This document shows positions 18,066-38,978 of a DNA stretch of 64,000 nt, one piece after another. Each line of letters opens with the position of its first letter. Positions within the stretch are counted from its first letter, which is position 1. The notes under the pieces are model-generated. The model did not search any database and was not told the DNA's origin. It saw only the letters and a list, made by a program, of their open reading frames with translations. This stretch comes from an uncultured archaeon (lineage in GTDB: Archaea; Thermoproteota; Nitrososphaeria; Nitrososphaerales; Gagatemarchaeaceae), in contig CAWCYD010000003.1 in the NCBI GenBank assembly GCA_963799775.1, positions 1,856,001 through 1,920,000 on the forward strand, read 5' to 3'. The position numbers and the translations under genes are program-made.

Positions 18066-18157
18066 CGCTGGAAGCCTTTCGGGCGACCAGTTCAGCCCGT
18101 CCACTACCTATAGCTCAACGTGCGGATGAAATGCCCCGGCGGAGGCGCAACGAACCC
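18066..18157 (+). repeat. Long repeat copy (23S 3' end + BHB half)
   Basis: CGCTGGAAGCCTTTCGGGCGACCAGTTCAGCCCGTCCACTACCTATAGCTCAACGTG..GGCGCAACGAACCC. Confidence 0.95.
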
Positions 18158-18175
18158 AAGCAGGGCGAAACTATG

Positions 18176-18571
18176 TCAGTGAGCTTCTAGGATCGTCTGC
18201 TTGGCCCGTTCGTCGAAGGTCACAAGAAATCTTTCGAAGACGGCCCTTCTTCCGAGGAGACTGAGAGGCAGCCTGTGGCTCGCGGTGAACGCAACCTCAG
18301 CTTCAAACTCCTCGTTCCCTATCTTCAATCTGATTCTGTGGAGGTAGGCGTTTATCGTGCCGCCGATACCAGAAGGTCTGATCCGCTCGCCGCGGTCGAT
18401 GGTCAGTCCCAGGACTCTCCCAATCTGCCCGTCGAAGAGGCTTACGCTCGCGCCCGAGTCGACCAGCGCCTCCGAGGCCACCCACGGACCATCAGAGAGT
18501 CGCAACTCAAGTGGGATTATTGGAAAGTTGGAACCCCTAAAGGGCACGTATCCGAACTCGTATTTCGTCAA
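18176..18571 (-). CDS. Retropepsin-like (clan AA) aspartyl protease
   Basis: ALVDSGA, GIGG flap, LLGR. Confidence 0.85.
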   Translation of the reverse strand: MTKYEFGYVPFRGSNFPIIPLELRLSDGPWVASEALVDSGASVSLFDGQIGRVLGLTIDRGERIRPSGIGGTINAYLHRIRLKIGNEEFEAEVAFTASHRLPLSLLGRRAVFERFLVTFDERAKQTILEAH

Positions 18572-18792
18572 AGAATCAGGAGTTCTTCATCCTTCTTGGG
18601 GACGTAGAGCACCAGGGGCACTTGCTTTGGATGGATCCTCGTCGCTTTCTTGTGTGCCTCGCCGAAGCTCTTGCCATCAGCGACTATCTTCCTGTCAAAT
18701 ACGGCGATCCATCGCCCAGAGTGCTTCTCCGCCTCGGCGTGGTGCTTGACCAGCCATTCGTGCTCCTCCTTCAAGGAAGCCATGCTCGGCAA
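18568..18792 (-). CDS. DUF5678-like small protein
   Basis: GRWIAV..KIVADG; overlaps the aspartyl protease start. Confidence 0.75.
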   Translation of the reverse strand: MPSMASLKEEHEWLVKHHAEAEKHSGRWIAVFDRKIVADGKSFGEAHKKATRIHPKQVPLVLYVPKKDEELLIL

Positions 18793-18950
18793 CTAGATTC
18801 CACCAAGTAATATTACTTTTGAGGCCTCGGGGCAGGAGAATTTCGGCGACCCAACTCGGCCCACTGCCTTCAGCTGCATTTCATAGAAGCTAGCGAGAGC
18901 TTGAACCGTCATCCGAATGAGTTAGAAGACAGTCTCGTGTCGCTTTCTTC

Positions 18951-19637
18951 ATGATTTGCGCCCGAAGCAGAGCAGGGCTTAGCGCCACAGTCATAATTCT
19001 GGGCATCATAGCGATTCTCCTTGTCACTGCTATCGGCTTGTATGTTGCATACACGCCCGCCGAGCCTCCCGTCCCGAACATCCATACCAATTCGACAACT
19101 CCAACCCTTAGCACAACCACCAGCCTTCCTCTCACTACCACCAGCGATTCCGCCTTGTCATCAGGCAACAACTTTCCTTTGGCGGTGGGCGATTATGCTC
19201 GTTACACTGGAACTGCCTTGGAGCACCTGGACCGGAGCAAGACCAACGAGACCGTCATTGTCGAGGTCGTATCAATCAATGCCAGCGGCGTCGAGTGGAG
19301 ACAGATTACGAACACTTCAACGGTCTCCAATCAGGAGTCATACATCGTCCCTCTTGGAGCGTCACCCTTCCATTCTAACAGTTCCGGGATGACTTTCGTT
19401 CCTGTCAGCACTGAGAACATGGTCAGAGTCATCGGGTCGAGGGTCTACAATGTCACGGCAATGGTGTACGACGATGGGAATAACGGTTCTACGACCTTCT
19501 CTTACTACTATCGAACTTGGACGACCCTCATCCCGATCGAGACTAGCTCGCAGTCGGCCCTACCACTCGGCAACACGACCGATGACCTTTTCCTCACTGA
19601 GACGAACATCCCGTGGATGATCACTGTTCAACCATGA
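18951..19637 (+). CDS. Secreted S/T-rich surface protein
   Basis: RAG-LS followed by a hydrophobic stretch; N-glycosylation sequons. Confidence 0.65.
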   Translation: MICARSRAGLSATVIILGIIAILLVTAIGLYVAYTPAEPPVPNIHTNSTTPTLSTTTSLPLTTTSDSALSSGNNFPLAVGDYARYTGTALEHLDRSKTNETVIVEVVSINASGVEWRQITNTSTVSNQESYIVPLGASPFHSNSSGMTFVPVSTENMVRVIGSRVYNVTAMVYDDGNNGSTTFSYYYRTWTTLIPIETSSQSALPLGNTTDDLFLTETNIPWMITVQP

Positions 19638-19761
19638 GCCCGGCGGAGGCGCAATGAACCGCTACCGCGCACGGTCTCAACGAGTCAGCGAGAACCGGAC
19701 CTGACCACCGAACGAGGTAAGAACAGGCTGCTCTCACGCGGTTGCCAGCTTTAGGGCTGAT

Positions 19762-20535
19762 TTGGACTTGAACCTGAGAAGAAAAGAGAGCGCCTTCATT
19801 CTCGCGCAGGTGGTCATCACCCTCGCGGTCCTTGCGCTCGTTTCGATTCCAGCAGTCTCCAGGCTGTCTACGAACGACGGGTCTGTTGTCTTCTCGTCCG
19901 GGGTCTCGCCCGACGGCCTCCAGCTCGAGATGGCGCTGAACTCCACCGCGATGCGGGTGAACGGGTCGATCGGCGGCCACGTATCGGTCGTCAACACGCT
20001 CGGCACAGACGTCACCGTCGTCGTCCCAGAGCCCAGCCAGAAGATGTCGGACTGGAGCAGATACACCAACATCTGCCCGACTTCCAACTTTGAAGGCTAC
20101 GCGGTGTTCATCGGGCGCTATTCGGCGGACAACATCTCTCTGGCAGGAGAACCCTTGACGTTGGTCCCGCCCATGATCCTAAATTGCGTCATCCCTTACT
20201 ACGTCCCCGGTCCACTCACCTTCTCCCCTCACGGGGGTCCCTCGGGTCAGACCGTGGTCTACGCCCAGAGCCCCTCGAGCACCAAAGAAGATCGACTCCT
20301 TATCACCACGCTCTTCTGCAACACGACAGAGTCTGGCCCTCAGAGCTTTAGCTGCAGCTGGGCCTCTCCAGGGCTCGTCGGCTATTGGGAGGGCGGCCCT
20401 GGCTCGCCCGCCAACTTCGGCTTCACCTCTCCCGGCTTTGCGCGGTTCTTTCCCGGGGTCTACACGATCATGGCGTGGGATGTCTGGGATCAGTACGTCT
20501 TTGCGAGGGTCGTCGTGACGAGCGCTGTACGGTGA
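19762..20535 (+). CDS. Secreted surface protein (paralog of 20694-21353)
   Basis: GLQLEMALNST, GYW, PGVYTI.AWD.WDQ. Confidence 0.65.
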   Translation: MDLNLRRKESAFILAQVVITLAVLALVSIPAVSRLSTNDGSVVFSSGVSPDGLQLEMALNSTAMRVNGSIGGHVSVVNTLGTDVTVVVPEPSQKMSDWSRYTNICPTSNFEGYAVFIGRYSADNISLAGEPLTLVPPMILNCVIPYYVPGPLTFSPHGGPSGQTVVYAQSPSSTKEDRLLITTLFCNTTESGPQSFSCSWASPGLVGYWEGGPGSPANFGFTSPGFARFFPGVYTIMAWDVWDQYVFARVVVTSAVR

Positions 20536-20693
20536 TTGCGAATAGTCTGGCTCCAAGACTGACCGCAGCCTCGGCGGAGGCGCAATGAACCCATATGCAT
20601 GGCACATGCCCTGCAACTTTGTTTTGACAAGGCCCAGCGGAGACTGTAGCGTTCGGGCAAACCGATTTTAAGGACTCAGGACACATTCTCTAC

Positions 20694-21353
20694 ATGGCGT
20701 CGACGGCGGTCGCCGTTGTGGCATTTCTGATAATCGCAGCGGCCGCATCAGTGGTCTTCGCTGAAGATCCGAACAACCCTGGCTATGGAGGCATGCCAAC
20801 CTCCCTGGCTTTGACGGCCTCCTCAACTAACCGCGCGACCGGCTTGTCGCTTGAATTGGCATTGAATGCAACGACCGTGAAGAGCGGTCAGGCGGTGGAC
20901 ATTATGGCGAGCGAGACCAACACGCTACCAACGATGAACAACGTAACCGCGTCGAACCAATGGCCGGTCAAAGGCCTTGCTGTATTCGAGAGTCCATGCG
21001 GGACCGTCAACCATCCCTTCGGGATGGCTCTCTATCGCGGATACTACGGGAATGTCAGTTTGGCCAAACCGCTCCAACTCTACGCACCCGAGCCCGTTTA
21101 CCATTGCCCTATGATACTCTCGAAGATCACACAGTATTCCTTCTACCCGGAGAACTCCACCGCCCAGATTTGGGGAAGCTGCGTCCCAGGACCTTGTCAG
21201 ACTTTCGCCATGTTCGCGAGCCTCCCAGTGAAAGGATACTGGAATACAGGATTCCTCTCCGATCATACGGCGCTCATTCCTGGAGTCTATACTGTCGCTG
21301 CTGGAAACGAATGGGGGCAACTCGAGCTGCTCTATTTCGTGGTCCGGGCCTGA
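20694..21353 (+). CDS. Secreted surface protein (paralog of 19762-20535)
   Basis: GLSLELALNAT, GYW, PGVYTV.AGNEWGQ. Confidence 0.65.
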   Translation: MASTAVAVVAFLIIAAAASVVFAEDPNNPGYGGMPTSLALTASSTNRATGLSLELALNATTVKSGQAVDIMASETNTLPTMNNVTASNQWPVKGLAVFESPCGTVNHPFGMALYRGYYGNVSLAKPLQLYAPEPVYHCPMILSKITQYSFYPENSTAQIWGSCVPGPCQTFAMFASLPVKGYWNTGFLSDHTALIPGVYTVAAGNEWGQLELLYFVVRA

Positions 21354-21420
21354 ATTTCCGGGAGGCGCAGTGAACCTTATGCATGGTAACACGCCCACAT
21401 TTTGTCAAACCTAGCGGAGC

Positions 21421-21681
21421 TCACGGGTTGTCCGCATCAGGCTTGTCCTTGGCGTGCCGTGCGATCACTATCGCCCATCCCAAGAGTATCAATCCGACCA
21501 GCACACCGATTGCTGCGCCGCCGAGGTATTGGTAAGCAGACGTTGAGACTCCAGGACAGCTGCACGATATCGTTGTGCCTGGTGGCGCGGACAACCCCGC
21601 GCAGCACTCTCCCGGTCGCGGAAAAACAAATAGAATCAGAAGGGAGACGAACTCAACGAAGCCTCCCAGGCCCGCCAGCAC
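21421..21681 (-). CDS. Small two-TM Cys-rich membrane protein
   Basis: Two hydrophobic helices flanking a Cys-rich loop. Confidence 0.5.
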   Translation of the reverse strand: MLAGLGGFVEFVSLLILFVFPRPGECCAGLSAPPGTTISCSCPGVSTSAYQYLGGAAIGVLVGLILLGWAIVIARHAKDKPDADNP

Positions 21682-21889
21682 GACGACCTTGGAAAGCGAT
21701 TCTTCAATTCATCTTTCCTACAACTCGGTTTGTCGGATTCCCGATCGATACGCCTTGTGGAATTATCTCGGACGGAGGCGCAATGAACTCTATGTGCGGA
21801 ATTGCCCGCATTCTCATCGAGCTAGCGGGAGCTGGAGAACAATGCTCCGGAAGATGTAAGAGCGATTTCAGCAGCTCTGAAATGGCAGC

Positions 21890-22534
21890 ATGAAACCGGA
21901 AGATGACCGGAGGTCCCAATCAAGGGTTGCTCTTGTCATCGCTTCAATTGCTCTGCTCGTTGTATCGCTTTTTGCCGCGTTCGAGTACTCCGCAGCATCT
22001 TCGCTCGGCATGTCCGACCAGACCCTCGCGAGCAGCCTATCTCAGCTGCAGTCTGAGAACAAGAACCTGGCTTCAACGCTCTCTGGCTATTCGGTGGCCG
22101 CAAATTCATCGGTAGTCCAAGCAGTCGAGGTGCACATCTCCAAGTTGAGCCAGAGAAACGTCCAGGCCGCTCTTCTGGACTACGCGTCAAACTCTACGGT
22201 AATCTGGACTGGTACCACGCAGGGTTGGGGCGGGATATACAACAGCACATACAAGGACGTGGTGCTACGCGATTTCTTCGGTCTTCCTAGCATACTCAAC
22301 TTCACGATGCAGCTGCCATACGGGGTCCAGACGGGAGCGGCCGTCCCCGGGACCGCGATAGCACTCACGACCATCCGTTTCGGAGGCCTCAGTCGGTGCG
22401 TTGATGACTTCTCGGGCCTAATCCAGGCCTCTTACTCGCTCGTCAATCAGAAGGGCGTTTGGCTCATAACGCAGGAGGACTGGAACTTTACCAGCTTCAA
22501 TGTCACTTACCCTAGTGGAGAGGGCTTTTGCTGA
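21890..22534 (+). CDS. Membrane-anchored NTF2-like secreted protein
   Basis: VIWTGTTQGWGGIY, WLITQEDWNF. Confidence 0.65.
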   Translation: MKPEDDRRSQSRVALVIASIALLVVSLFAAFEYSAASSLGMSDQTLASSLSQLQSENKNLASTLSGYSVAANSSVVQAVEVHISKLSQRNVQAALLDYASNSTVIWTGTTQGWGGIYNSTYKDVVLRDFFGLPSILNFTMQLPYGVQTGAAVPGTAIALTTIRFGGLSRCVDDFSGLIQASYSLVNQKGVWLITQEDWNFTSFNVTYPSGEGFC

Positions 22535-22963
22535 GCCGGAGGCGCAATGAACCCTATACACGGCGAATGTCCTTCAGGTCCATCCAGTCGCTTTCAGGAA
22601 GTTTCATAAACGAGGCAGACATTGCCGAGTCCCATGGCGCTCGAAGAGCCACTGACCCAGGCTGAAAAGAAAAAACTTCACAGCATTCTGAGCGATCCGA
22701 AGGCCCTCGATGCGGTCATTGACAAGGCGCTGGAAGGCTGGAGTGGCCACAGAGTTTGGAAGAAGAAGACAAAGAACTCCTAGAGCTACTTACCTCGCTT
22801 GAGACCAGGCTGAAACGACGCGTGGTCAAGGCGCCCTTCAGGAGCCCAGAAACCTTATTCGAAGAACTTGAGGCCCTTGACGTGGTCATGGATCTGAAGA
22901 AGAGACTTCGTTCCTGACTACGCCCGGCGGAGGCGCAATGAACCTATGCATAACGACAATCAC

Positions 22964-23500
22964 CTAGGCTTGACTGGCTTCCATTTCCATCTGAATCTTG
23001 TTCCAAAGCATGCTCTCAGAGAGTTTGAATTCGAGACGTTCAGCCTGAAACATCAGAAGGATTTCCTCTTGCAGCCTGTTGGGCTTTGCCCTCTTAATCA
23101 CCTTCCTGCTGCTTTGCCGCAAGTAGCCGGCTCGATTCATTATCCTCGCTAGGAACAGACTCGCGAAGTGTATCTTGCCTGACTCCAGCCAGCGTACCTC
23201 AGGAATCCCGGACTGTTCAAAGGCGCCCTGGTTGTCGGTCAGGATGACGTAATTCTCAAATCCCTTCTGCTCAGAGATCTCTTTCGCCCGCCTCGCAGCA
23301 AGAATCTCCATTTGAGTGGATGCCGGGTTGCCTTTCTCGGTGACGGCGTTGATAGTGGAGCTCTCGATATATCCAAAGTCCTTGTCAGGTACCAGAACCA
23401 CGATTCTCCCTGTGAACTTATCAGTCACCTTGCTCGAAGTCAAGCCTTCCATTACCGCCGGGGACACTGAAGCGTCGCAGTAGACTTCGACGGCGCTCAT
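22964..23500 (-). CDS. RNase H-like fold protein
   Basis: VYCDAS..STQMEILA..VILTDN acidic triad. Confidence 0.6.
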   Translation of the reverse strand: MSAVEVYCDASVSPAVMEGLTSSKVTDKFTGRIVVLVPDKDFGYIESSTINAVTEKGNPASTQMEILAARRAKEISEQKGFENYVILTDNQGAFEQSGIPEVRWLESGKIHFASLFLARIMNRAGYLRQSSRKVIKRAKPNRLQEEILLMFQAERLEFKLSESMLWNKIQMEMEASQA

Positions 23501-23669
23501 CGAGAGGCGTTCCCGGCTGCGTCCTAATGATGTTTGAGGCGCAATGAACCCTGTGTATGGCGCAAGCCCTTCTACTTCATTTTAGAGAAAGCCTAGCGGA
23601 GCTCGCGCACTACGAGACCTATTCTATCAGGTTCAATAGGGAGCGCACACGTTTCATCCTTGAGGCGCT

Positions 23670-24897
23670 ATGAGGAGCGCAGTCGTCGCAGCGGTTGTCA
23701 TAGTCTTGGTCGCAGCGAGTCTGGGAGTTGGCTACCAACTCGGCAACCAAGCCCAACGCACCGAGACGCTAAACTCGACATCCACTCAGACTATCATCTC
23801 TATCAGCACCTCGACTTCGACGTCCACTCTGACCAGCACCTCTACCTCCTTCGTCAGCGTAGCTAGCGGTCAGCCCATTCCGGTCACGAGCGTCGAGACC
23901 GCGAACATAACCATCGGACAATCTCCTGATCCCTATGCCGAGTCAATCGCGGTCAATCCCAACACCAACAGAGTCTACGTCGTTGACGGGTCTACTCTGA
24001 CCGTCCTAGACGCGGCGTCGCACGCAGCGATCGCGAACGTCACGCTGCCAGCGAGCGGCACTGGAGGAATCGCCGTCGACAACCCCACAGGCATCGTGTT
24101 CGTCTCGGTCGAGTTCTTCAACGACGGGGCACCCGTAAAAGGGGAGGTCGCCGAGATCAATGGCTCCACGAACGCAATCGTGCGCGAGCTTCCGCTCGAC
24201 TCCCCCCTAGGCGCGCTCGCGTACGACCCATCCACCCACGTCCTTTACGGCTCCGCAGGGGGAAACCCGGGTTCCCGCAGGCCATAATGGCAGTCTCCTG
24301 GGCGTCGACGTCCAGACGGGCTCTATGGTGTCAAACGTGTCGCTTGGTTTCAGGGCCTTTAACCTGGCAGTCAATCCCATGACAAACATGGTGTATGCCG
24401 ACGGGTGCGACCAGTTTGGTCTTGCCTGCGACGCGGTCGTGTCAATGGTCAACGGGACGAGCCGTAGCCTGGTCACAACCGTTCACCTGAACTCGGCGTA
24501 CTCCACGACCATGACCGCGAACCCGGCGACGAACATAGTTTACGCTTCTGGAGCAAGGGAGCTCGTCGCCCTCAATGGGACCAACGGGGGCACGATCTTC
24601 AAGGTGGACCCTTACACTTGCGGCCCCTTCCTCGGCATGGCCGTAGTTCCTTCGGCGAACCAGGTCATCATGGTCCCGCAGAACTACGACTACCTGCTGG
24701 TGTACGACGGAACGTCCGGAGCCCTGCTCACCATGTATTCGCTCCCGAGCTTGCCGCAATCGGTTGCCTACAACCCCAGCACCAACGAATTCTACGTGAC
24801 GACCTCGGGGCATCTCCTGGCCTTCCCCGACCTGGACTTCGTGGGCGACGCGAACCCTTCACTGATTGGTTCGAATGACACATGCCTGCCGGTCTAG
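23670..24897 (+). pseudogene. YncE/YVTN-like beta-propeller surface protein, frameshifted near 24285
   Basis: Repeated AVNPxTNxVY units across two ORFs; signal anchor. Confidence 0.75.
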
Positions 24898-25062
24898 TCC
24901 CCGCATCCCCGCGAGAGGACGGCGTCGGTTTGCAACATGCATGCCCCGGCGGAGGCGCAATGAACCCCTATGCATGGCGACATGCCCGCATTTTTAGAAA
25001 CTGAGCGCGAGCCAGGACTCCTCCACACGCTTAATTACGTCTAATGTCCGCAATCGCCAGCC

Positions 25063-25302
25063 ATGGCCAGAGCAGAGCAGAAATACCTCATCGATCGGGA
25101 GACGTTGGAACACCTGCTCGCGATGCTCAGAGACGGAGTCGCCAAAGGCGCCAGCGACAAGGAAATCAGAGAGCAGACTCTAGAAATCCTCGACCCCTAC
25201 TATCGGGCCAAGGTCGATCGTGCCCTCAAAGAAGCGTCAGAAGGAAAGGTAAGGCGCTTCAAGAACGCGGAAGAGATGATTCGCGACCTTCACTCGCGCT
25301 GA
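25063..25302 (+). CDS. Putative antitoxin
   Basis: ALKEASEGKVRRF; directly upstream of a RelE gene. Confidence 0.7.
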   Translation: MARAEQKYLIDRETLEHLLAMLRDGVAKGASDKEIREQTLEILDPYYRAKVDRALKEASEGKVRRFKNAEEMIRDLHSR

Positions 25303-25308
25303 CGGCAC

Positions 25309-25569
25309 TTGCCCTGGTCGCCAGAGTATACTCCGACATTCAGACGAGACTACAAGAACCTAGATTCACAGAATCAGCGAAGGGTTGACGACGCAATCAG
25401 GGATATCGTCAACGCCGATGAGCCTAGGTCTCTCGGTCGCCCGAAACTTGGTAAGTGGGCGGGAGCGTTTGGTTATGATGTCGGCCGTTCCATCAGGATC
25501 CTCTACTCGGTCAATCAGCCATACCACCTCGTGGTATTCTTGCGGTGCGGCCGCCATGACATTTACTGA
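25309..25569 (+). CDS. RelE/ParE family toxin
   Basis: YTPTFRRDYKNL..RILY..G.HDIY. Confidence 0.85.
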   Translation: MPWSPEYTPTFRRDYKNLDSQNQRRVDDAIRDIVNADEPRSLGRPKLGKWAGAFGYDVGRSIRILYSVNQPYHLVVFLRCGRHDIY

Positions 25570-25574
25570 TTATT

Positions 25575-25650
25575 GGCGACCAGTTCAGCCCGTCCACTAC
25601 CTATAGCTCGACGTGTGGATGAAATGCCCCGGCGGAGGCGCAATGAAACC
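25575..25650 (+). repeat. Long repeat copy (23S 3' end + BHB half)
   Basis: Near-identical to 11395-11470. Confidence 0.95.
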
Positions 25651-25719
25651 ACCTGAGTGGCTCGATCTCTGGCGCTTCACCCGCGGTTCCTTCGCAGACG
25701 CTCAGCCTCGCTTGGTTCT

Positions 25720-27150: not shown

Positions 27151-27226
27151 AATGCCCCGGCGGAGGCGCAATTGACCCTGCGCAGGAAGCATCATCTTAA
27201 ATACACATACGTGCACATAATAATCA

Positions 27227-27463: not shown

Positions 27464-27470
27464 GCGACCT

Positions 27471-31185: not shown

Positions 31186-31304
31186 TATTGCAGGCCCAGG
31201 GACCAAGGCGAAGCCAGCATTTTAATCGAGAGTCTATGGATTACTGGGCCCCGGTGGAGGCGCAATGAACCCCATGCGCGGCAACTAAATCCCCAAATGC
31301 TAGG

Positions 31305-31739
31305 TTGATTCTTCGCTGGCTTGTGGAGTCTCTACGCTACCCCTCGGTATCCGATGTGGTCGAGGTGAACAGGAGGGTCACAAAACTAACAGAAGATGAA
31401 CATCACATCGACGAGTATGATAGAGAGCGATTATCCAAGTTACTCGACGAGGTTCAGAACATCGGCAACTCCATCAGAAACCCGAGGCAGAGGATCATAG
31501 CCAAGTCGTCTTACCTGCTCTACTGCATTGCCGCTCGACAATTCTTTCACGAAGGAAACAAGAGAACAGCGTACACCGTCACCATGACGTTCTTGATTCT
31601 GAACGGCTACTCCATGCCTTCTAGAGATCCCAAGCGAGAAAAGATGCTCGACCTGATAGCCATGGGCCACCCAAGCATAACATTATTAGAGTTGGAGAAG
31701 CTAATGAGAAAACTGGTAACCAAGAGGGAGAACCCATGA
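31305..31739 (+). CDS. Fic/Doc family protein
   Basis: QFFHEGNKRTA..FLILNG. Confidence 0.85.
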   Translation: MILRWLVESLRYPSVSDVVEVNRRVTKLTEDEHHIDEYDRERLSKLLDEVQNIGNSIRNPRQRIIAKSSYLLYCIAARQFFHEGNKRTAYTVTMTFLILNGYSMPSRDPKREKMLDLIAMGHPSITLLELEKLMRKLVTKRENP

Positions 31740-31868
31740 GCAAGACAAGCCAAGAGATCAAGGTACCCAGGACTGACACTGAATTTGTCCGCCTAGCCAA
31801 GCAAGTAATCGCAAAAGAGAGGGACTATCTCATCTACATCGGCTCTGAGAAGCGCTAGCGACCAACGA

Positions 31869-32159
31869 GTGCCTGTCAGCGACATACAACCCTGGGGATT
31901 TACTCTGGCGTTGATTCGGGAAAAATGCGACTGGAAGGGGTGCAGTAACAAGGCATATCGCGAAGTAGACTATTTCACCAACAAGCCTCTCAGACAGAAG
32001 GTTGCTGACAACTTACGAACTTTGAGCGAAGACGAGGCTTCCAGTTACGTCCAAGAGCTGTTCAAAAAGAGAGGAATGTCGTGGTCTTTCCTGTGCAGGA
32101 AACACTTCAGGCAGGAGAGAGATGCCAATCGCATCATCATTTGGTCCACGATTTCTTAG
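31869..32159 (+). CDS. Hypothetical Cys/His protein
   Basis: CDWKGC..LCRKHF. Confidence 0.45.
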   Translation: MPVSDIQPWGFTLALIREKCDWKGCSNKAYREVDYFTNKPLRQKVADNLRTLSEDEASSYVQELFKKRGMSWSFLCRKHFRQERDANRIIIWSTIS

Positions 32160-32308
32160 CGAGAAGAGACTACTTCTGTCAAGAGCCCGAAAACGCACTT
32201 CGCACATAGGCGCGCCAAGCGTGGACCCATAATGCACGGCGATTGCCCCGCATTCTCAAAACGCACGCACCGGCGGAGGCGCAATGAACCCTTTGTGCAC
32301 GGCGAAGC

Positions 32309-32702
32309 CTAGTAGTCCTCGACTTTCAGCTCAGGTATTCCGGAAAAATGCTTGCGGTTTCGGGTGAGCAGCGGCTGGTTGTTCTCAACGGCAATCCCTG
32401 CGAGCATCGCGTCCTCCGGGTCTATCTTGTTCCCCTCCCTCACTCTCTGCGCGTAGATTGTCCCAGCCCTTACCGCAGACTGGGGGTCGAGCGGAAGCTG
32501 AGCGAGAGACCTGAGGACATCGAGAGACCTTCTCCCTCTCCTCAGACGACCTTACGCTGAGGCCGACCCCGACATAGAGCTCGAATATCGAAGGCGCTCC
32601 CACGAGGACAGGGGCGTTCGCGCCGGTGAGCTCCTCCGCCTTCCGAAGGGCGCCGGCGTCATTCCGCATCACGTCAACAAGAAACGTAGTGTCGACCAGC
32701 AA
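32309..32702 (-). pseudogene. vapC: VapC PIN toxin, frameshifted near 32525
   Basis: VDTTFLVD in one frame; DAMLAGIA..LLTRNRKHF in another. Confidence 0.8.
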
Positions 32703-32706
32703 GCGC

Positions 32707-32940
32707 TCAGCCCAGCCCTTCTGTGGTACGCTTGAGGCGCCTCGAGCTTTCTTCTCTTAGATTTCTCATACGCTCCTCCACTTGGTCTGCCTGAGGGGGA
32801 GACAAGATCCCTGCCAGATCCAGCACTCCCTTGCTCCGCGTCATCCGTTCGATGACCTCGGTGAAGCTCTCTCCCGGCTTCTTCAGGGCCTTGAGCCTTT
32901 GGTATGCTTCGTCGGAGATCGCGATATTCTTGGTCCCCAT
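32707..32940 (-). CDS. vapB: VapB-family antitoxin
   Basis: KNIAISDEAYQRLK..K.PGESFTEVI. Confidence 0.85.
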   Translation of the reverse strand: MGTKNIAISDEAYQRLKALKKPGESFTEVIERMTRSKGVLDLAGILSPPQADQVEERMRNLREESSRRLKRTTEGLG

Positions 32941-33125
32941 ATTCTGTGTGTGTCTGTGTGTGGGAGCTAATAACGATTGCTGCCGAGAATCTGCGGCGAA
33001 GTCACCTATGTCGCGCCCGTCCACCACCTATAGCCCAGCGTGTCAATGAAGTGCTCCGGCGGAGGCGCAATGAACCCTGTGTATGGCGACTAGTCTGCAA
33101 GTTCTCCGGCAGCTGCGCGCCTTGT

Positions 33126-33524
33126 TCACTCGAACACGCGCTTTATCCCAGCGATTCTGTCGAAATCTTTGTCGTTTGAGTAGACCTCGGCGATCTTCTC
33201 TCTTCTCATGACGGCGAGAGTGAGAGCGTCAACGAAGTCCATGCTCATCTTTTCCGCCTCGGCAGAGGCCCTGGGATAGTCCCTCCATCTGTTGCTCACC
33301 TTCTTCATCTTGTTGTAGGAGTTTACGGCCGCGAGGAAGACGCCAGCCCCCTTCTTCCTGTCGTTGTACTCGAGCCAATCGACGACCTCCTGAATTACAG
33401 CTAGGCTCGTCATCGCCTCTTCGCCCTCCTCCACCCTCTTCAGGATGGCTCTGGACGTCTCAAAGTCTCGCTTGGGGCTCCCAATCAGCGTGTTGAGAAA
33501 CACGTTGGCATCGACGAACCTCAA
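33126..33524 (-). CDS. vapC: VapC PIN toxin
   Basis: FVDANVF, DFVDAL, YSNDKDFD. Confidence 0.9.
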   Translation of the reverse strand: MRFVDANVFLNTLIGSPKRDFETSRAILKRVEEGEEAMTSLAVIQEVVDWLEYNDRKKGAGVFLAAVNSYNKMKKVSNRWRDYPRASAEAEKMSMDFVDALTLAVMRREKIAEVYSNDKDFDRIAGIKRVFE

Positions 33525-33790
33525 CCCGAACCCCTCTCGAGCTTCCTCTTCATCCTGCTGGCTGCGGCTCTGACGATCTCCTTGTCGAGAGGCTGTCCCA
33601 TGGTCATCCCGGAAGCCAGCCTGCTGATCTTCTCCGTGGGGTTGGCTATCGTTCCCGCGGCTGAAATCACGAGCCTCCCATCCTTCAAATCAACTGTCAC
33701 GTAATCTCCTTCTTCAACACCGAGCGCCTCTCTCATCTCCGCCGGAATCGTCACCTTGCCCTTTTGGAGCACCTTGACTTGAGCACCCAA
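33521..33790 (-). CDS. AbrB/MazE-type antitoxin
   Basis: KGKVTIPAEMREALGVEEGD. Confidence 0.85.
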   Translation of the reverse strand: MGAQVKVLQKGKVTIPAEMREALGVEEGDYVTVDLKDGRLVISAAGTIANPTEKISRLASGMTMGQPLDKEIVRAAASRMKRKLERGSG

Positions 33791-33957
33791 CGAGGTTCAC
33801 CTTCTGAAGGTAACCCAATGATTTATTGTTTGTGCTTTGCTTCTGGAGGCTTCGGCGCCCAGTTCAGCTCATGCGCTACCTATAGCTCAACGTGTGAGTG
33901 AAATGCCCCGGCGGAGGCGCATTTTGCTCTTAAATAAGAGGCCAACATCAAACGGCC

Positions 33958-34221
33958 GTGTCAAAGGTGGCCGAGAAGATTCCTGGCTGGGTGGAGAGGC
34001 TACTCATCCCCAAGTTGGAATCCAAGGTCCGCAGCATTGTAAGCGAGGAGGTCGGGCACCTTGAGAAGGTGCTGGATGCGCGTTTCGACGGCGTTCAATC
34101 CGAGATAAGACGCGTCGACGAGAAGATCGGCTCGCTTGAGAAGCGCTTCCCCGAAGTGCAGGAAATTGCGGAAATCAAGGCAAGGCTCAGCCAGGTCGAA
34201 AGCAAAGTCTCTTCTCGATAG
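33958..34221 (+). CDS. Small coiled-coil protein
   Basis: Heptad-like pattern; fills one cassette. Confidence 0.55.
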   Translation: MSKVAEKIPGWVERLLIPKLESKVRSIVSEEVGHLEKVLDARFDGVQSEIRRVDEKIGSLEKRFPEVQEIAEIKARLSQVESKVSSR

Positions 34222-34760
34222 GGCCTTCAGAACGCAGTCATTCTCCAAGCCAAACGGGTCCGGCGGAGGCGCAATTCCTCTCACGAAAAAGTGACGAATG
34301 ACGGCTTTGGATTTTCAGGCACGATACCCGGCCCAGGATGCCCCCGTGATGGGCGCTTTTTAGTCAGTTCTTCGATTGAGGATTCGAACGCTGACCGGCT
34401 TGGTCGAGATTCGAATAGTTGACGAGACTGGGACTGTCGTCCTGACCCTAGCATGGCGAAGGCGCTCTACGGCGGTCTGCTACCAGTTCCCGGATTCGAG
34501 GATTGCCAAGGCAAGCCTTAAAGAACTTGGCCGCCAATTGGGGGTCGACGAGGATACATGGAAAGCACTGGGGATCTGAGGGTCGCAAAGAAGATAGCGA
34601 CCGGCTCGGCAGTCGTCATAAGGGAGTACGTTGACGAGATGAGGAAGCAAGGAAGGATCAGCGGGGAGCTGTCGATCGTCGTAAGAGAAGGCAAGAAGGA
34701 ACGACGGTTGCCGTATCCACCCGTCTCCTAAAGCGGTCCTGCGGGGGGCCCGTCGAATCT

Positions 34761-34856
34761 GGGGTGTACGCTCGAAGCTTCGGCGACCAGCTCAGCCCGT
34801 CCTCTACCTATAGCTCGACGTGCGGATGAAATGCCCCGGCGGAGGCGCAACGAGCC
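34761..34856 (+). repeat. Repeat copy with the longest 23S-derived 5' part
   Basis: Begins GGGGTGTACGCT, matching 23S from ~11370. Confidence 0.93.
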
Positions 34857-35652
34857 TAATCATGGAACTGAAATCCCACCGCGTCCCATTCTAGGCTTCG
34901 CATAACGATCTGGCCGATTCCATCGAAGAAGAACCATAACACAAGAACCCTTGCATACAACTGTTGAAATCAGCGGGTCGTCAGCCTCCAAAGAGCCCAT
35001 TACCGGCGGCTGCTCTCGATATCAAGGCAATCTCCGAGCGCAACTTCTTGGACGAGGAATCCAGCTGGCGCATGACAGATTTTCACATATGGCCGGGCGA
35101 GCACTGCCCGGTGTTAAGACGGCAAGCTGACATGGGGCTCGCGATCAGGACTACGGACGACGACCTTGAGGAGTTACGGACTTCCGAAACATCTCGCCGA
35201 TCTGTAGGTCAGGAAGAAGCGATTGGCGATCCGACCATTCGCCTGAAACGGGGCCCTAATGACCGAGCTACCTGATGACTCCAGCTTCCTGCAAGATTCG
35301 TCTCATCCTTGCCTCCATCGAGAACGTTACTTCTTCGGCAGTTCTTGTCCCAAGGTAGAACTCCTCATGCCATTCGATCTGAAGCGTCCTACCCGGCCCC
35401 AGGGGAACGACCCTGGCGTATCGGACGGAGCCCTTCAAGCGATCGTCAGAGATGCCCTCGCTTCCTGTCAGTCTAGCCGCCCGTGGGCCATTGGTACACT
35501 TGATGGATATACGACTATTCTCAGGACTTTCGCTCTTCTTCATGCAAAGCCGAGGTAGTGAAGACATTTCTCGAAGAATTGGAGCTCGGCGGAGGCGCAA
35601 TGAACCCACATGCACAGCAAAGCCTCAATCAGAGGCAGCGAAGGAACTCTTC

Positions 35653-35841
35653 CTAGGAGATGTCGCAGTCCTTCAGGATGACGCTCAGCAACCCGACACG
35701 GATCTCTTTCGCCGGCACGGTCACGTAGACCCTTCCGTTCGTCAGCGTCACGTGGCTACCCTTCTGCCTGACGGCGCGGAAGCCGAACTCGTTGCAGAGG
35801 ATCTTGATGAGGTCTCTTCCTTCTACAGGTCTGAGCCTCAA
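35653..35841 (-). CDS. hicA: HicA toxin
   Basis: GFRAVRQKGSHV..VTVP..EI..GLL..IL. Confidence 0.85.
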   Translation of the reverse strand: MRLRPVEGRDLIKILCNEFGFRAVRQKGSHVTLTNGRVYVTVPAKEIRVGLLSVILKDCDIS

Positions 35842-35842
35842 G

Positions 35843-36034
35843 TCACGCTACGGCTTCTATCGCCTTTTCCTTCAGGGCCGAAAGGTGAAGCTCGAGGGCC
35901 GCCTCGAAGTTGCGCTTGGCCTCGGCCAATGTCTTCCCGACGCTGTAGACGCCGAGCGCCGAGCAAGCGATGGCGTACGAACCGTCCTTCTCCTTGATGA
36001 TTCGGGTCCGGACGTCCCTGAGCTTGATCGACAT
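35843..36034 (-). CDS. hicB: HicB antitoxin
   Basis: DGSY..LGVYSVGKTLAEAKRNFEAALELHL. Confidence 0.85.
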   Translation of the reverse strand: MSIKLRDVRTRIIKEKDGSYAIACSALGVYSVGKTLAEAKRNFEAALELHLSALKEKAIEAVA

Positions 36035-36209
36035 CGTCCTGGAATGACCGGTCGAGCCGCCCATAAGCTTTCCTTCCCGACCAGTTCAGCCCGTCCACTA
36101 CCTATCGTCCAAGGTGCGAGTGAAATGCCCCGGCGAACCCTAGCGGAGTTTGACGTTCGGACAAAGGTATATGTTGCGCAAGGCCGGTTCACCCAACCGG
36201 TGTTCCCAC

Positions 36210-37061
36210 ATGCCGAAGAGAGGTCTCGGAGCTCAGGTCGCCGTCTTCATCGTCATAGCGGTCTGCGTGGTCGCAGCCATCGGGGTAGTATCGCTTATGC
36301 AGTCAGGGGCGACTTCCGGATCCACGACCTCTAGCAACGATGCAACCAAGGCGACGTTCCTGTACCGCACGATGCCCAAGGAATTCGCAGTCGGCGGCTA
36401 CATGTTCTACATGGAATACAACGGCACCTACCTCGTCACCACTTTCAACGGGACGGCAACCGCAAACACAGGCTTCAACCTCGAGCTGAGGGTCTCGAAC
36501 GGGCTCTCCAATCAGACAATCGTGTTCGGATGGGCTCCTCCCGCCCCCTCGCCCGGCGTGCTTCCAACCCCCGATAGTGCGACCCTCTTCGGCGGCGGGC
36601 TACAGTTGAACTGGTTCAGCAACAGCACGGGAACCTATCTCCGGGCGTCCTTGAGCCAGGCTACATCCACCGTTACGGCTCCGGGCTCCACGACGACCTC
36701 GTTCACGCTGTCGACAGGGCCATCTGATACTATAACGACTGTTACGGGATATCCGACCTCCTCATCCCCGTCGGCAGGTTCGAGCTCTCAACAAGGCGGG
36801 ACGCAGACGGTGACCGCTACGGTGACCACGAAAGTCGGCTCCCCGGGGGGGACGACGACGGTGACCGAATGCAGCAGCACCAACACCAGCACAGTGACTA
36901 CCACATTGATCGAGTCGTCCACTACCCAAGCCGTAGCCACTGTGACGACGACCGCAACTCTTACGTCAACAAGCTACGGTTCAACGGCGACCGCAACAGG
37001 CTGCCAAGCGACTGTCACGACAGAAACAGTCACACAGACGACCTCCGGCCTCGGTTCGTGA
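36210..37061 (+). CDS. Thr-rich surface protein
   Basis: MPKRG-LG followed by a hydrophobic helix; Thr-rich C-terminus. Confidence 0.7.
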   Translation: MPKRGLGAQVAVFIVIAVCVVAAIGVVSLMQSGATSGSTTSSNDATKATFLYRTMPKEFAVGGYMFYMEYNGTYLVTTFNGTATANTGFNLELRVSNGLSNQTIVFGWAPPAPSPGVLPTPDSATLFGGGLQLNWFSNSTGTYLRASLSQATSTVTAPGSTTTSFTLSTGPSDTITTVTGYPTSSSPSAGSSSQQGGTQTVTATVTTKVGSPGGTTTVTECSSTNTSTVTTTLIESSTTQAVATVTTTATLTSTSYGSTATATGCQATVTTETVTQTTSGLGS

Positions 37062-37210
37062 CCCGCCAGCGCGTGAAATGCCCCGGCGGAGGCGCGATGA
37101 ACCCTAGGTATGGTGACAACGTCCTCCCTCGTGCGCTTTCTCGGCTCGCCCCGAAAGCAGCAAGCCAACAGAGAGCGCGCAAGCTTCATCTGGCTCTCGG
37201 ATGGCGCAGT

Positions 37211-38194
37211 CTAGAACCAGCCGACGCGCTTGAAATACAACACCATCAGGACGGCGGGGACGACCATCGCTAGGAATATGAGCGCCATTGACGTGTAAGG
37301 CCCGATGAACCCCGTCGGCCCTGTCACAGAGCCTCCAGGAAGGGGCACGTTCATTCCATAGATGGAGCTTATCACGGTCGCTGGAATTGTGAGGGTAAAG
37401 ATGATTGTCAGGATCGCGAGCACGGTGTTCGTTCGGTTGCTGCTGGTGACGAAGTCGGTGTCCTTGTATATCTCTACCATCTCCTTCATCTCTTCAATCG
37501 TCGCGGAGACCCTCCCGATCTTGTGGCGGATGTCGCTGAAGTAGATCGAAAGGTCTTCCGTGCTGAACTTCTGCGCCTTGACCACGTCGGGCAGATACAA
37601 TTGCAGGGGATACACGACCCTTCTTAGGATAGCAATCTGGCGGCGGGCGTCGTTTATCTCGCTGGCCGACGATTTCACCTCGTCGAAGACGATGGCCGCG
37701 ACATTGTCAAGACTGGCCTGCACGTCGTCCAAAATCGAGAAGAGGCTGTCGATTGACCTGTCGATTATCAGGTACGCCAGGTAGGCTGAGGACTGCATGA
37801 GCGAGTCCCGCTCCTTTTCGTCGTCTCTGCACGAATGGAAGAGAGCCGAGACTGTCTCGAAGCTGGACGGATGGATGGTCACCAGGAAATCCTTCCCCAG
37901 GAACATCGAGACCTGCCTGGAGACGATTTGTTGGCCTGCCTGGTCAGGGAATTGGAAGGAGATGAAGAGGTGATCTCCGTGGTCTTCCACCTTCGTCAGC
38001 GGTCTCGTCGACAGACAGTTTTCTAGGTCTAAGGGGTGAAAATGATAGACACGCGCGAGCATCGCCGTCTCGGTTGAGGTAGGGTCAAGGATGTCCATCC
38101 AAGTCATCCTCCCGTTGTCGACGGACGCGACCTTTCCGTTTTCGATGTCGCTTCCCGCTCCCGGTCCGGGGGAAGGGCTTGTCATAGGATTCAT
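37211..38194 (-). CDS. corA: CorA-family Mg2+/Co2+ transporter
   Basis: FHPLDLE, YGMNV motif, two C-terminal TM helices. Confidence 0.92.
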   Translation of the reverse strand: MNPMTSPSPGPGAGSDIENGKVASVDNGRMTWMDILDPTSTETAMLARVYHFHPLDLENCLSTRPLTKVEDHGDHLFISFQFPDQAGQQIVSRQVSMFLGKDFLVTIHPSSFETVSALFHSCRDDEKERDSLMQSSAYLAYLIIDRSIDSLFSILDDVQASLDNVAAIVFDEVKSSASEINDARRQIAILRRVVYPLQLYLPDVVKAQKFSTEDLSIYFSDIRHKIGRVSATIEEMKEMVEIYKDTDFVTSSNRTNTVLAILTIIFTLTIPATVISSIYGMNVPLPGGSVTGPTGFIGPYTSMALIFLAMVVPAVLMVLYFKRVGWF

Positions 38195-38346
38195 TGGCCA
38201 CCCTTCGGTATAATTGGCTTGTGAGTGAAGCTCCCGGCGGAGGCGCAATGAACCCTATGCCCGGCGATTGCCCGCAATTTCACGACAGACTCCCGGTTGT
38301 TTGTTTTATATCGAGATGGGGGAGCTAATACCGGCCTCTCACTTCC

Positions 38347-38622
38347 TTGCCCACTCAGTACACCAAGCATGCACTCTTCAGAATGAAGGTCAGGCGTGTG
38401 AGCAAGAGAATGGTCGGAAAGACAATCAGGCAGCCCGAATCAAGATACCAAGACCTAGAATCGGGCACGACGGTCGCGGTGAGGAAGTTTGCTCAAAGAT
38501 ACCTGGTGGTGTTCTTCACCGAAGGGAAAGACACACGGATAGTGACAGTCTACCACGCGTCAGACGTTGGCAGCCTTATTAGTAGGAAACAGCGAAGAGG
38601 AGCTTGGGTCGAAAAGAAATGA
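38347..38622 (+). CDS. DUF4258-like putative toxin
   Basis: YTKHALFRM..R..IVTVY. Confidence 0.7.
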   Translation: MPTQYTKHALFRMKVRRVSKRMVGKTIRQPESRYQDLESGTTVAVRKFAQRYLVVFFTEGKDTRIVTVYHASDVGSLISRKQRRGAWVEKK

Positions 38623-38813
38623 AGCTCGACTACGATGCAGAAGATGACGTCCTCTATTTTCACTTTAGGGACGGCCCAGCAGAAAGCGTGAAAGAGGTCG
38701 AGGATAACGTGATGGTCGAGCTGGATGATGACGGAGAGGTAATGGGGATCGAGGTCTGGGGCGCCAAAAAGAAGGGAGTCCTCAGACAGCTGACCAATGC
38801 CGTTTCACACTGA
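38619..38813 (+). CDS. DUF2283-like putative antitoxin
   Basis: YDAEDDVLY..GEVMGIEV. Confidence 0.8.
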   Translation: MKLDYDAEDDVLYFHFRDGPAESVKEVEDNVMVELDDDGEVMGIEVWGAKKKGVLRQLTNAVSH

Positions 38814-38978
38814 CTGTTGGGAACCAATCGGGATTCGGCGGCCAGTTCATCCCGTCCACTACCTATAGCTCAACGTGCGAATGAAATGCCCCGGAAGGCG
38901 CAATGAACCCTGTGCATGGCGAAGTCCCTGCATTTCTTCACAAACCCAGCGAAGCTGCTGGATAGCCAAACACCCTGC

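Follow-up and report, generated by a model that had tools for sequence, protein, structure and literature searches.

A gene-cassette array anchored at the 23S rRNA gene of an acid-soil archaeon, with repeats that probably keep older 23S ends

Results

The window analysed here, a 64,000-nucleotide stretch of an archaeal genome (G000), carries on its + strand a 16S rRNA gene (5747..7244; Rfam RF01959, 1474 bits) and a 23S rRNA gene (7478..11442; RF02540, 2417 bits) with a group I intron inside it (9517-9772, +; RF00028, 77.5 bits). By BLAST these are the only 16S and the only 23S gene in the assembly (3 contigs, completeness 81.7%), and there is no second rRNA operon that could carry a UUCG variant of the 23S end. 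The terminal hairpin of the resident 23S, read directly, is GCCC-GCAA-GGGC at 11386..11397 (+), as originally predicted. A segment of the 16S-23S spacer (7434..7480, +) cofolds with the sequence around the 23S end (11421-11500) at -71.6 kcal/mol and with continuous pairing, giving the 5' strand of a pre-23S processing helix. The 3' strand of this helix is, in the resident copy, the 25-nt core CCCCGGCGGAGGCGCAATGAACCCT, which lies directly past the 23S end (11446..11472, +) and is the first repeat, site 0, of a long array. Two complementary flanks pairing around an rRNA were found for the resident copy only, with a putative bulge-helix-bulge geometry as judged by eye.

The long copies of the 23S end downstream are the boundary repeats of an array of cassettes whose anchor is the 3' end of this single gene. 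The array occupies 11446..55962 (+) and holds about 45-47 cassettes. Counted as far as about 66 kb, beyond the window end, there are 43 core sites by profile HMM (E<=0.01), all on the + strand, and 48 by pattern at up to 3 mismatches; at least 36 direct copies of the core are in register. At 41 window sites the core shows 0-2 mismatches between flanks that have diverged; the conserved block, measured over 205 internal sites from 8 arrays, spans positions -8 to +18 counted from the start of the core. A boundary may continue on its left side into a copy of the 23S 3' tail (0 to about 100 nt) and on its right side, in some cases, into a copy of the trailer. The intervals between sites measure 0.4-2.9 kb and mostly hold one ORF each, with 43 array ORFs on the + and 27 on the - strand. 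Cargo consists mostly of unknown proteins; toxin-antitoxin pairs, a TBP paralogue, an FtsZ-like gene, a CorA transporter and a thermopsin protease are also present, and one cassette is filled by a VapB-VapC (PIN) pair (27227..27866, +; PF02697 4e-17, PF01850 6e-18). Cassette GC is 55.1% against 58.8% for the genome (sd 4.0, 1-kb windows), about one standard deviation lower. Folding of 41 sites from -45 to +77 with RNA energy parameters and mononucleotide shuffles showed no hairpins at the cores (mean z +0.26, z < -2 in 1 of 41; mean z -0.15 for mid-cassette controls).

All six loop positions of the original prediction carry the letters it gave: GCCTTTCGGGC at 18074-18084, TTCGGCG at 18842-18848 and 38834-38840, GCCTTCGGGC at 27904-27913 and GCTTCGGC at 33849-33856 and 34777-34784. 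As a word, GCTTCGGC is not significant, occurring 5 times against 3.58 expected (at least 5 in 25 of 100 shuffles); the copies are significant because their flanks match the 23S end. A BLAST query made of the last 200 nt of the 23S gene and 100 nt of trailer matched 18066-18169 (E=2e-31), 27910-28001 (E=2e-32), 33854-33921 (E=5e-21), 34761-34856 (E=6e-26) and 38837-38956 (E=8e-31). In a MAFFT alignment the TTCG of 18074, 27904, 33849 and 34777, and partly that of 38834, occupies the column of the resident GCAA loop, and a sixth copy reaching this column lies outside the window (contig C2, 173560-173647, minus strand). None of the six copies long enough to include the loop has GCAA, which bears out the claim that the long copies do not duplicate the allele that the resident gene now has.

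The 23S 3' end (30-100 nt) is present in 12 copies. All boundary repeats located by BLAST and MAFFT in the window are on the + strand. The long repeat at 18066..18157 has a 23S tail from CGCTGGAAGCC and the loop GCC-UUUCG-GGC; the long one at 27900..27986 has GCC-UUCG-GGC, and the longest in the window (34761..34857, about 100 nt of 23S tail) has GC-UUCG-GC. Of two more long repeats, that at 25575..25650 has a tail that starts just 3' of the loop and that at 38834..38910 begins inside it (AUUCGGCG). The long repeat at 33849..33931 (MAFFT) carries a UUCG loop and a core truncated after GGAGGCGCA, the copy at 36078..36135 has a partly deleted core and a cargo-tail junction common to the related genome G011, and 18842..18915 (MAFFT) is a genuine, strongly diverged copy of 23S end and trailer that lacks the core. 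Medium-length tails are found at 29921..29992 and 33015..33077 (both BLAST), further tails at 41072..41140 and 41787..41846, and a short one at 54949..54994 (BLAST).

Isolated imported rRNA ends, as the original prediction had it, are thus not what these copies are: the array to which they belong is found through the genus and family. At up to 2 mismatches the core occurs in 20 of 22 other genomes of the same genus and in both genomes examined from two other genera of the family; genomes of other families gave single 2-mismatch matches in 4 of 16, and a control pattern gave 0-1 matches per strand in every genome. When up to one mismatch is allowed, 79 of the 97 genomes of the family have it, and 9 of the 10 genera. 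In all eight genomes whose 23S 3' flank was examined, a same-strand array begins directly 3' of the 23S gene. Between or within arrays we found 119 matches of at least 200 nt, whose homology ends -2 to -17 and +16 to +30 from a core. The members of seven cassette pairs, at about 90-97% identity, have different neighbours; two of these pairs vary in the 5' part of the core, and identity with the downstream cassette sets in near ACCCT. Two neighbouring cassettes are ordered X-Y far inside the G007 array and Y-X, as the first two, in a G009 stretch whose 23S junction lies just outside. Duplicates within arrays comprise cargo and tail as one unit. Homologues in the other seven arrays exist for 13 of the 47 host cassettes, the remaining 34 being unique to G000, and for none of the first nine cassettes beside the 23S gene. 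Cassettes are therefore shared with breakpoints inside the core, which shows that an rRNA processing signal doubles as a recombination site, and the locus is an array of discrete, mostly single-ORF cassettes moving as units. Cassettes, usually of one gene, would be gained, lost and reshuffled by recombination inside the core, and new or re-inserted ones may enter beside the 23S gene. All genomes used here were assembled from metagenomes, where repeats may lead to assembly errors, and contigs built from short reads of the same soil end at every site; these points count against our reading as a whole. That a mobile cassette array lies behind the 23S gene we hold with high confidence.

The original prediction left two origins for the tails, the 23S ends of related species or an ancestral allele. 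UUCG does occur in real 23S genes of relatives: the resident loops of ten same-genus genomes are UUCG in six, CUCG in one and GCAA in three, and a second genus has GC-UUCG-GC in five genomes. The closest residents by this stretch, those of G011, G018 and G017 (95, 94 and 92% identity), have GCC-UUCG-GGC. Import of other species' 23S ends together with a downstream gene, the conserved rRNA end serving as anchor for homologous recombination, would account for this UUCG form and draws on several further observations. The 37 nt around the hairpin of the C2 copy recur exactly in the resident 23S of four genomes of another genus. Four G000 tails share GTGCGGATG, found in the G004 resident, where the residents of G000, G011 and G017 have GTGTGAATG; this fits a donor allele outside our sample better than a direct ancestor. 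The same soil runs yielded a contig whose 23S end is of the UUCG, GACTAG type (loose end at 11388), and a G018 unit of tail, core and cassette resembles the G011 23S end with its first cassette (83% by BLAST, 93% in the cassette interior). However, past the hairpin the C2 and 34761 copies are of the host-genus type ACTACCTATRGCTCRACGTG, not of the other-genus type ACTAACTATACCCCAACGC, two-sided homologous replacement would swap the end but add no copies, and cassette GC deviates too little from the genome to speak for a foreign source. At their other diagnostic positions, 20 of 22 tails across arrays match the host clade, the host's own resident 23S being among the best matches. We consider import of 23S ends from other species unlikely.

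With UUCG in the majority among relatives and with tails that match the host clade, older alleles of the same lineage are the favoured half of the original alternative, and foreign species the less favoured one. Both G021 tails are of a type private to G021, the G018 tails have the GACTAG variant of their clade, and an ectopic G018 array begins with a 203-nt 23S fragment that is 97.5% identical to its own gene and 93% to those of G011 and G000. On balance we think that the tails are older in-lineage 23S alleles, with perhaps some import from close relatives alongside. They would descend from 23S genes of the host's own clade, be free of rRNA selection and so have kept earlier allele states: the G000 tails would retain the UUCG hairpin still used by the closest relatives, and the working gene would since have switched to a GCAA hairpin that is one base pair longer. 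One G018 tail (array coordinate 15657) of G011 rather than G018 type, and a tail-to-resident identity that does not fall smoothly with distance from the 23S gene, count against this reading. Simple core-by-core recombination does not account for how a 23S tail comes to be copied into an internal site.

As for the enzyme, no tyrosine or serine recombinase gene and no PF00589 gene lies within the window, no integrase gene adjoins the 23S array, and none of the about 47 cassette units carries one, which speaks against the proposed system as a whole. Our first candidate, put forward tentatively, is a Xer-like tyrosine recombinase with a C-terminal zinc ribbon. It is encoded elsewhere by two paralogues of 69% identity. 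Behind each of them stands a DnaJ-domain gene, and the two lie in similar elements that carry variable cassettes with core boundaries in their middle. In 4 of 5 homologues of at least 70% identity (G000, G020, G011, G017) a same-strand core site follows about 600 nt 3' of the integrase, so that four genomes share one fixed arrangement in which the integrase and DnaJ-domain genes precede a core site. Such an integrase may act in trans on the 23S array. The best model for the recombinases was archaeal XerA (46 and 68 bits, cut-off 220); the integron integrase model TIGR02249 gave 23.4 and 20.9 bits against a cut-off of 265. No integrase homologue (E<=1e-20) was found in G018 (87% complete) or in G009, both of which have arrays.

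Alternatively, a solo Cas1-fold integrase might insert whole genes at the repeat beside the 23S "leader". Duplication of the target would then yield the repeated core and a displaced leader-side cut the copy of the 23S tail, each tail being a dated snapshot of the resident 23S end. The host genome and its family do encode proteins with a Cas1 domain (630-985 aa, family-restricted; PF01867 4.7e-7), none of them in the 23S array; homologues occur in 11 of 24 family genomes and in none of 16 genomes of other families. Their E, H and D are invariant with an H-to-D spacing of 13, which is also that of Cas1, and an AlphaFold model (pLDDT 80.7) matched best Cas1 4n06 (E=1e-9) and the casposase 6opm (E=9e-9). 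At 4 of 11 loci of one clade, the Cas1-like gene is followed on the same strand by a core site no more than 130 nt to its 3' side, and one further locus ends at a tRNA 3' fragment. A conserved block fixed at about 25 nt, sites without hairpins, cargo on either strand, tails specific to the host clade and 23S-adjacent cassettes unique to G000 would all suit such an insertion. On the other hand, G007 (a single contig, 95% complete) has a 37-site array and no Cas1-like homologue at E<=1e-10, and the same holds for G018 and G009. Searches found no Cas2, the one PolB, at 450 kb, is remote from the Cas1-like genes (PF00136 matched only at C3:450-454 kb; PF03175 gave no match in a search whose PF03175 control was also blank), three Cas1-like loci examined had no convincing terminal inverted repeats, and 10 of 17 loci had no core site in the fetched flanks. 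Within-array duplicates of cargo and tail are also explained by core-by-core recombination, and any cassette cargo would appear as a gene with a site directly behind it. Insertion by a Cas1-fold enzyme appears improbable to us.

An RNA-level role, with the repeats as bulge-helix-bulge halves directing cleavage or circularisation of a read-through transcript and the array as by-product, could be read from the identity of the core with the processing helix 3' strand and from a mapped recombination junction near ATGAACCC that coincides, by eye, with a 3-nt AAU bulge beside a 4-bp GCGC helix. Yet complementary 5'-strand copies are absent from the 8 arrays, bar one opposite-strand match among 15 in G011, so that internal sites could pair solely with the one spacer strand, which lies 4 to 48 kb upstream; many of the cargo genes are on the opposite strand, no reverse transcriptase was found, and we give this role very little credence. 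A passive origin, in which the 23S trailer was duplicated segmentally and so left repeats between genes while the cassettes did not move, is just as improbable. Segmental copying does occur (ectopic arrays with 23S fragments as large as the one in G018), but the G000-only cassettes, the recurrence of the others in different order and position, and a core so well kept between diverging flanks all speak against such an origin.

Discussion

Taken together, our results probably describe a mobile cassette array with tails from older in-lineage 23S alleles and a Xer-like candidate enzyme. If true, this would be an archaeal cassette-capture system without integron parts, contributing 40 to 60 or more cassette genes per genome through a family of abundant acid-soil archaea, with the 25-nt core as a concrete, testable target sequence and two candidate enzymes. 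Should the tails indeed be older alleles, then the decayed copies are a rare internal record of an rRNA hairpin change in one lineage, from UUCG to GCAA with a stem of 2, 3 and then 4 bp. It is tempting to go further and speculate, with rather low confidence, that the locus represents a third gene-capture platform beside integrons and CRISPR, where the processing-helix strand behind the 23S gene is the attachment site and whole genes are inserted with target duplication either by a solo Cas1-fold integrase or by a Xer-like one with a DnaJ partner. If so, the array would also record successive 23S-end alleles of the host, in the order GC-UUCG-GC (34777), GCC-UUCG-GGC (27904), GCC-UUUCG-GGC (18074) and finally GCCC-GCAA-GGGC of the working gene.

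Literature searches found no description of this 23S-anchored cassette system, and it shares features with several known ones. Like casposons and CRISPR it has a fixed-length repeat beside a leader-like conserved sequence, beside which the newest units may lie, and its genomes also encode solo Cas1-fold proteins, in some cases with a core site right behind the gene. We rejected a CRISPR array, in which constant repeats with Cas1 and Cas2 enclose short spacers of tens of nt: the "spacers" here are whole genes, in ORF-bearing intervals of 0.4-2.9 kb, and no Cas2 was found. Adjacent PolB and terminal inverted repeats were not found either, and arrays exist also in genomes without a Cas1-like gene. 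The tandem integrative elements at tRNA 3' ends resemble the array in having direct repeats derived from a stable-RNA gene's 3' end (here the 12 copies of 30-100 nt) and in their tandem accretion at one target. They differ in that each encodes its own integrase, the units here are 0.4-2.9 kb with an integrase in none of about 47, the target is an rRNA gene plus trailer, and the conserved part lies outside the mature RNA.

Chromosomal integrons, with IntI, attI and attC arrays, have been reported also in archaeal genomes (Sci Adv 2022, PMC9668308). An integron was likewise rejected here, with an integrase below the model cut-off (23 bits against 265 for integron integrases), no attC-type hairpins and cargo on both strands. 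Where attC sites, as imperfect inverted repeats, fold into single-stranded hairpins, the sites of this system have a linear core of 25 nt. No integrase adjoins the main array, whose anchor is the 3' end of a 23S rRNA gene with its processing helix and whose cargo (43 ORFs on +, 27 on -) is not co-oriented as it is in integrons, where promoterless cassettes are read from a single promoter. What it has in common with integrons is a long one-directional array of mostly single-ORF cassettes of largely unknown function that includes toxin-antitoxin pairs, cassettes common to several genomes in differing order, a probable re-insertion at the anchor-proximal position and, at secondary loci, a tyrosine recombinase gene followed by a site.

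UUCG-loop copies and their repeat family

The window holds one archaeal rRNA operon, in which Rfam places a 16S gene at 5747-7244 and a 23S gene at 7478-11442 that is interrupted by a group I intron (9517-9772, + strand; RF00028, 77.5 bits). The terminal hairpin of this resident (working) 23S gene, read directly from the sequence, is GCCC-GCAA-GGGC (11386-11397). The original prediction held that longer copies of the 23S end carry a UUCG loop at this place, and its letters are present at all six positions that it named. BLAST with the 23S end plus trailer supported the long copies as real 23S-end copies (E 5e-21 to 2e-32); their TTCG words align to the column of the resident GCAA loop and none of the six loop-reaching copies, five within the window and one on contig C2 of the same genome, has GCAA. 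The significance of the copies comes from their flanks and not from the 8-nt word GCTTCGGC, which has none by itself (5 occurrences vs 3.6 expected). No second rRNA operon was found, the assembly having by BLAST a single 16S and a single 23S gene. Short-read contigs from soil of the same study (runs X1 and X2) part from the window at 11388, within the hairpin, and continue with UUCG and a 23S end of the GACTAG type; the soil therefore also harbours a related strain with the other loop.

The UUCG-loop copies are the longest members of a single repeat family. About 50 copies of its 17-nt core GGAGGCGCAATGAACCC, spaced 0.4-2.9 kb apart, stand on the + strand between 11454 and 55946. Of the 62 core sites that a profile HMM detected genome-wide, 43 belong to the array behind the 23S gene (all +) and the other 19 form about eight small clusters; site counts vary with the mismatch threshold. 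Past the window end come two more core sites, at about 1.3 and 2.0 kb (65258 and 66016 in the window frame). The block conserved across eight arrays (205 internal sites) reads CCCCGGCGGAGGCGCAATGAACCCT. Leftwards from the core, resemblance to the 23S tail reaches over 0 to about 100 nt, and to its right a trailer copy continues at many sites (repeat families D8-D10). Each interval is filled by one and sometimes two ORFs, 43 on the + and 27 on the - strand, and cassette GC is 55.1% vs 58.8% for the genome. A dyad symmetry over the core was considered and rejected: two imperfect palindromes with an 11, 6, 11-nt layout (7/11 positions each) were seen by eye and a script gave weaker versions only. 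An Rfam scan of the window and 9 further loci of the genome gave no additional RNA family except one tRNA.

The core is an rRNA processing signal. From 11433 to about 11483, core included, the 3' flank of the 23S gene forms a duplex with the 16S-23S spacer at 7434-7480 (dimer -71.6 kcal/mol), and a putative bulge-helix-bulge can be drawn by eye, with a GGGUUC/GAACCC helix, an AAU bulge, a 4-bp GCGC/GCGC helix and an AAG bulge. The internal sites are 3' strands only, and opposite-strand core copies were absent from the eight arrays except for 1 among 15 in G011, a genome of the same genus.

The repeat is present in Nitrososphaerales records, including ‘Candidatus Gagatemarchaeum’. With up to 2 mismatches the core was found in 20 of the 22 other genomes of the genus, in up to about 80 copies, and in other families of the order as single 2-mismatch hits in 4/16 genomes, while a reversed control pattern had 0-1 hits per strand in each genome. 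At a limit of 1 mismatch the core occurs in 79/97 genomes and 9/10 genera of the family. A same-strand array stands directly behind the 23S gene in all eight genomes for which the 23S 3' flank was fetched, with 10 to 58 sites in the fetched stretches. All these genomes are metagenome-assembled, their repeats are prone to assembly error, and as relatives they are non-independent samples. The exact core 20-mer had 0 matches among IMG/VR viral contigs.

Loop history and origin of the tails

A UUCG loop is found in real 23S genes of relatives, as the original prediction expected, and the three closest relatives by the compared stretch (95, 94 and 92% identity) all have it; by parsimony, GCAA is therefore the derived state in G000, the source genome of the window. 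Within the genus the resident hairpin is GCC-UUCG-GGC in G011, G018, G017 and G004, a different UUCG variant in G021 and in G001, CUCG in G014 and GCAA in G000, G007 and G009. UUCG also occurs in most other families of the order, and GC-UUCG-GC in 5 genomes of a second genus of the family.

We read the tails, the 23S-end copies left of the core sites, as probable remnants of the same lineage's 23S ends that would have been frozen after leaving the gene, because at their other diagnostic positions they agree with the host clade. For 20 of 22 tails the best matches include the resident 23S of the host itself; a private sequence of G021 recurs in both G021 tails, and G018 tails have the GACTAG variant of G018 and G017. 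In the G014 tails the form is TTACTATAG, as in the residents of G009 and G001 and partly in that of G007, unlike in the G014 resident itself, whose CTACCTATAG is apparently derived. At the place where the G000, G011 and G017 residents read GTGTGAATG, four G000 tails have GTGCGGATG in common, and one G018 tail is G011-like, so that some exchange among close relatives is possible. Of the foreign or older ends originally proposed, older ends of the same lineage are favoured, as the tails follow the host clade, but purely vertical descent is countered by the GTGCGGATG tails and the G011-like G018 tail. Import of the C2 copy from another genus, considered on an exact shared 37-mer, was rejected: the rest of the C2 tail is of host-genus type, and the 37-mer is therefore no evidence of import.

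G018 has a second array of 8 sites 160 kb away (L189:4896-14400; G018:C3:362896-372400) that begins with a 203-nt fragment of the G018 23S, 97.5% identical to the G018 gene and 93% to those of G011 and G000. The helix of this fragment, CUAG/CCAG, is intermediate between the CUGG/CCAG and CUAG/CUAG of living relatives.

Cassette mobility and cargo

Comparison of array sequences indicates that the cassettes are mobile units. BLAST of the eight arrays against one another gave 119 matches of 200 nt or more, whose edges cluster at core positions -2 to -17 and +16 to +30, and seven cassette pairs about 90-97% identical had different neighbours. In 2 of the 7 pairs the 5' part of the core varies at several positions and identity of the downstream cassette begins near ACCCT, which puts the point of exchange within the core's 3' part. 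The cassettes common to G007 and G014 are collinear, and rearrangements are seen among G000, G011 and G018. A pair of neighbouring cassettes stands as X-Y deep inside the G007 array and as Y-X at the head of the G009 stretch, whose 23S junction is just outside the fetched DNA. Homologues in the other seven arrays exist for 13 of 47 G000 cassettes and for none of the nine nearest the 23S gene; the cassettes that G000 has in common with its closest relatives, at 84-91% identity, are far from it. Insertion of cassettes beside the 23S gene would fit this arrangement, short of proof. Short Logan contigs of two soil DNA runs gave neither excision nor circles among 15 of the 19 joints, the sides of which are up to 35 letters, end in repeat sites and may stem from co-occurring strains. 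The public reads listed included no RNA run.

A Pfam scan covered 40 ORFs of the window, 34 of them in the array, of which 19 are without a Pfam family. Cargo with a family includes one VapB-PIN pair and a second VapB-type antitoxin, a thermopsin protease, a CorA transporter, a methyltransferase, an SRPBCC protein and an aldo-keto reductase. One cassette carries a full TATA-binding-protein paralogue (44779-45414, - strand; PF00352, 9e-60) and another an FtsZ/tubulin-family protein (53434-54894, + strand) whose GTPase and C-terminal domains are separated by an inserted winged-helix HTH. A DDE transposase within one of the larger intervals (14657-15721, - strand; PF01609) probably represents an insertion sequence that entered a cassette. 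Just beyond the dense part of the array is a gene for an AIPR (abortive-infection-type) protein (58081-59946, + strand), and the beta subunit of a 2-oxoacid:ferredoxin oxidoreductase (1454-3529, + strand) contains an intein with a LAGLIDADG homing-endonuclease domain (PF14528, 2e-14; PF14890, 1e-7).

Candidate enzymes and replication context

No tyrosine or serine recombinase was found in the window, and no reverse transcriptase or serine recombinase in G000 (81.7% complete). Two kinds of candidate emerged outside the array. The first is a pair of tyrosine recombinases, 69% identical, with a C-terminal zinc ribbon and each followed by a DnaJ-domain gene (L001:4636-6570; L002:4428-6351). They are Xer-like, with XerA as nearest solved relative, and score far under the XerA and integron-integrase model cut-offs. 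The two integrase-DnaJ elements are similar, about 8 kb long, and their middle consists of core-bounded variable cassettes; the L001 module starts right after an intron-bearing tRNA-like gene (L001:4636-4751), read by eye and without an ARAGORN or Rfam call. For 4 of 5 homologues of at least 70% identity, from four genomes, the integrase gene is followed about 600 nt downstream by a same-strand core site.

The second candidate is a group of Cas1-domain proteins of 630-985 aa (typically 820-930) that is confined to the family (G000 genes at C3:1829545-1831428, 1761963-1764713 and 1731878-1733718; family loci L172-L188). Glu, His and Asp are invariant, with a Cas1-like spacing, cysteine clusters are conserved and some copies are broken by stop codons. 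A confident model of one such protein (pLDDT 80.7) gave Cas1 and casposase as best structural matches. In one clade a core site lies within 130 nt 3' of the gene at 4 of 11 loci, and one further locus has a tRNA 3' fragment at its end. Neither Cas2 nor an adjacent PolB was found, and around three of the loci no convincing terminal inverted repeats were seen. The closed genome G007 has a large array and no Cas1-like homologue, and G018 and G009 were without either candidate at the thresholds used. Core adjacency alone cannot name the enzyme, because any cargo gene with a trailing site looks alike.

Use of the core by the host Xer as a chromosome dif site was rejected on the position of the array near the GC-skew maximum. 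An Orc1/Cdc6 gene is about 66 kb away from the G000 operon and array, and the cumulative GC-skew maximum at 1.79 Mb is close by, so that operon and array probably lie near a replication origin; the opposite extremum is at 0.52 Mb. G007 has the same neighbourhood, with a Cdc6 gene about 50 kb from its 23S end.

Mechanism and comparison with known systems

The account with the best support is an integron-like platform that uses the conserved sequence just behind the 23S gene for attachment. Cassettes would recombine core by core, re-enter beside the 23S gene once excised and be lost through deletion between cores. Internal tails could arise by target duplication at insertion, copying the resident of that moment, or could be cassette-borne arms once formed beside the gene; because the tails are clade-specific, continuing creation in place is favoured. 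Literature term searches returned no description of archaeal cassettes behind a 23S gene, and term look-ups within the text of PMC6563490, PMC10640624 and PMC9668308 gave nothing on them. The supplementary tables of PMC9668308, the archaeal integron paper, list archaeal genomes with attC clusters, and members of the family might be among them.

The working mode is like that of an integron, but the array has neither IntI nor hairpin attC, its cargo is not co-oriented, and the membership tests run did not place it among integrons. Elements that target tRNA genes similarly copy the 3' end of a stable-RNA gene, whereas the units of the 23S array carry no integrase. CRISPR arrays and casposons share with it a fixed repeat next to a leader; the units of the 23S array, in contrast, are whole genes.
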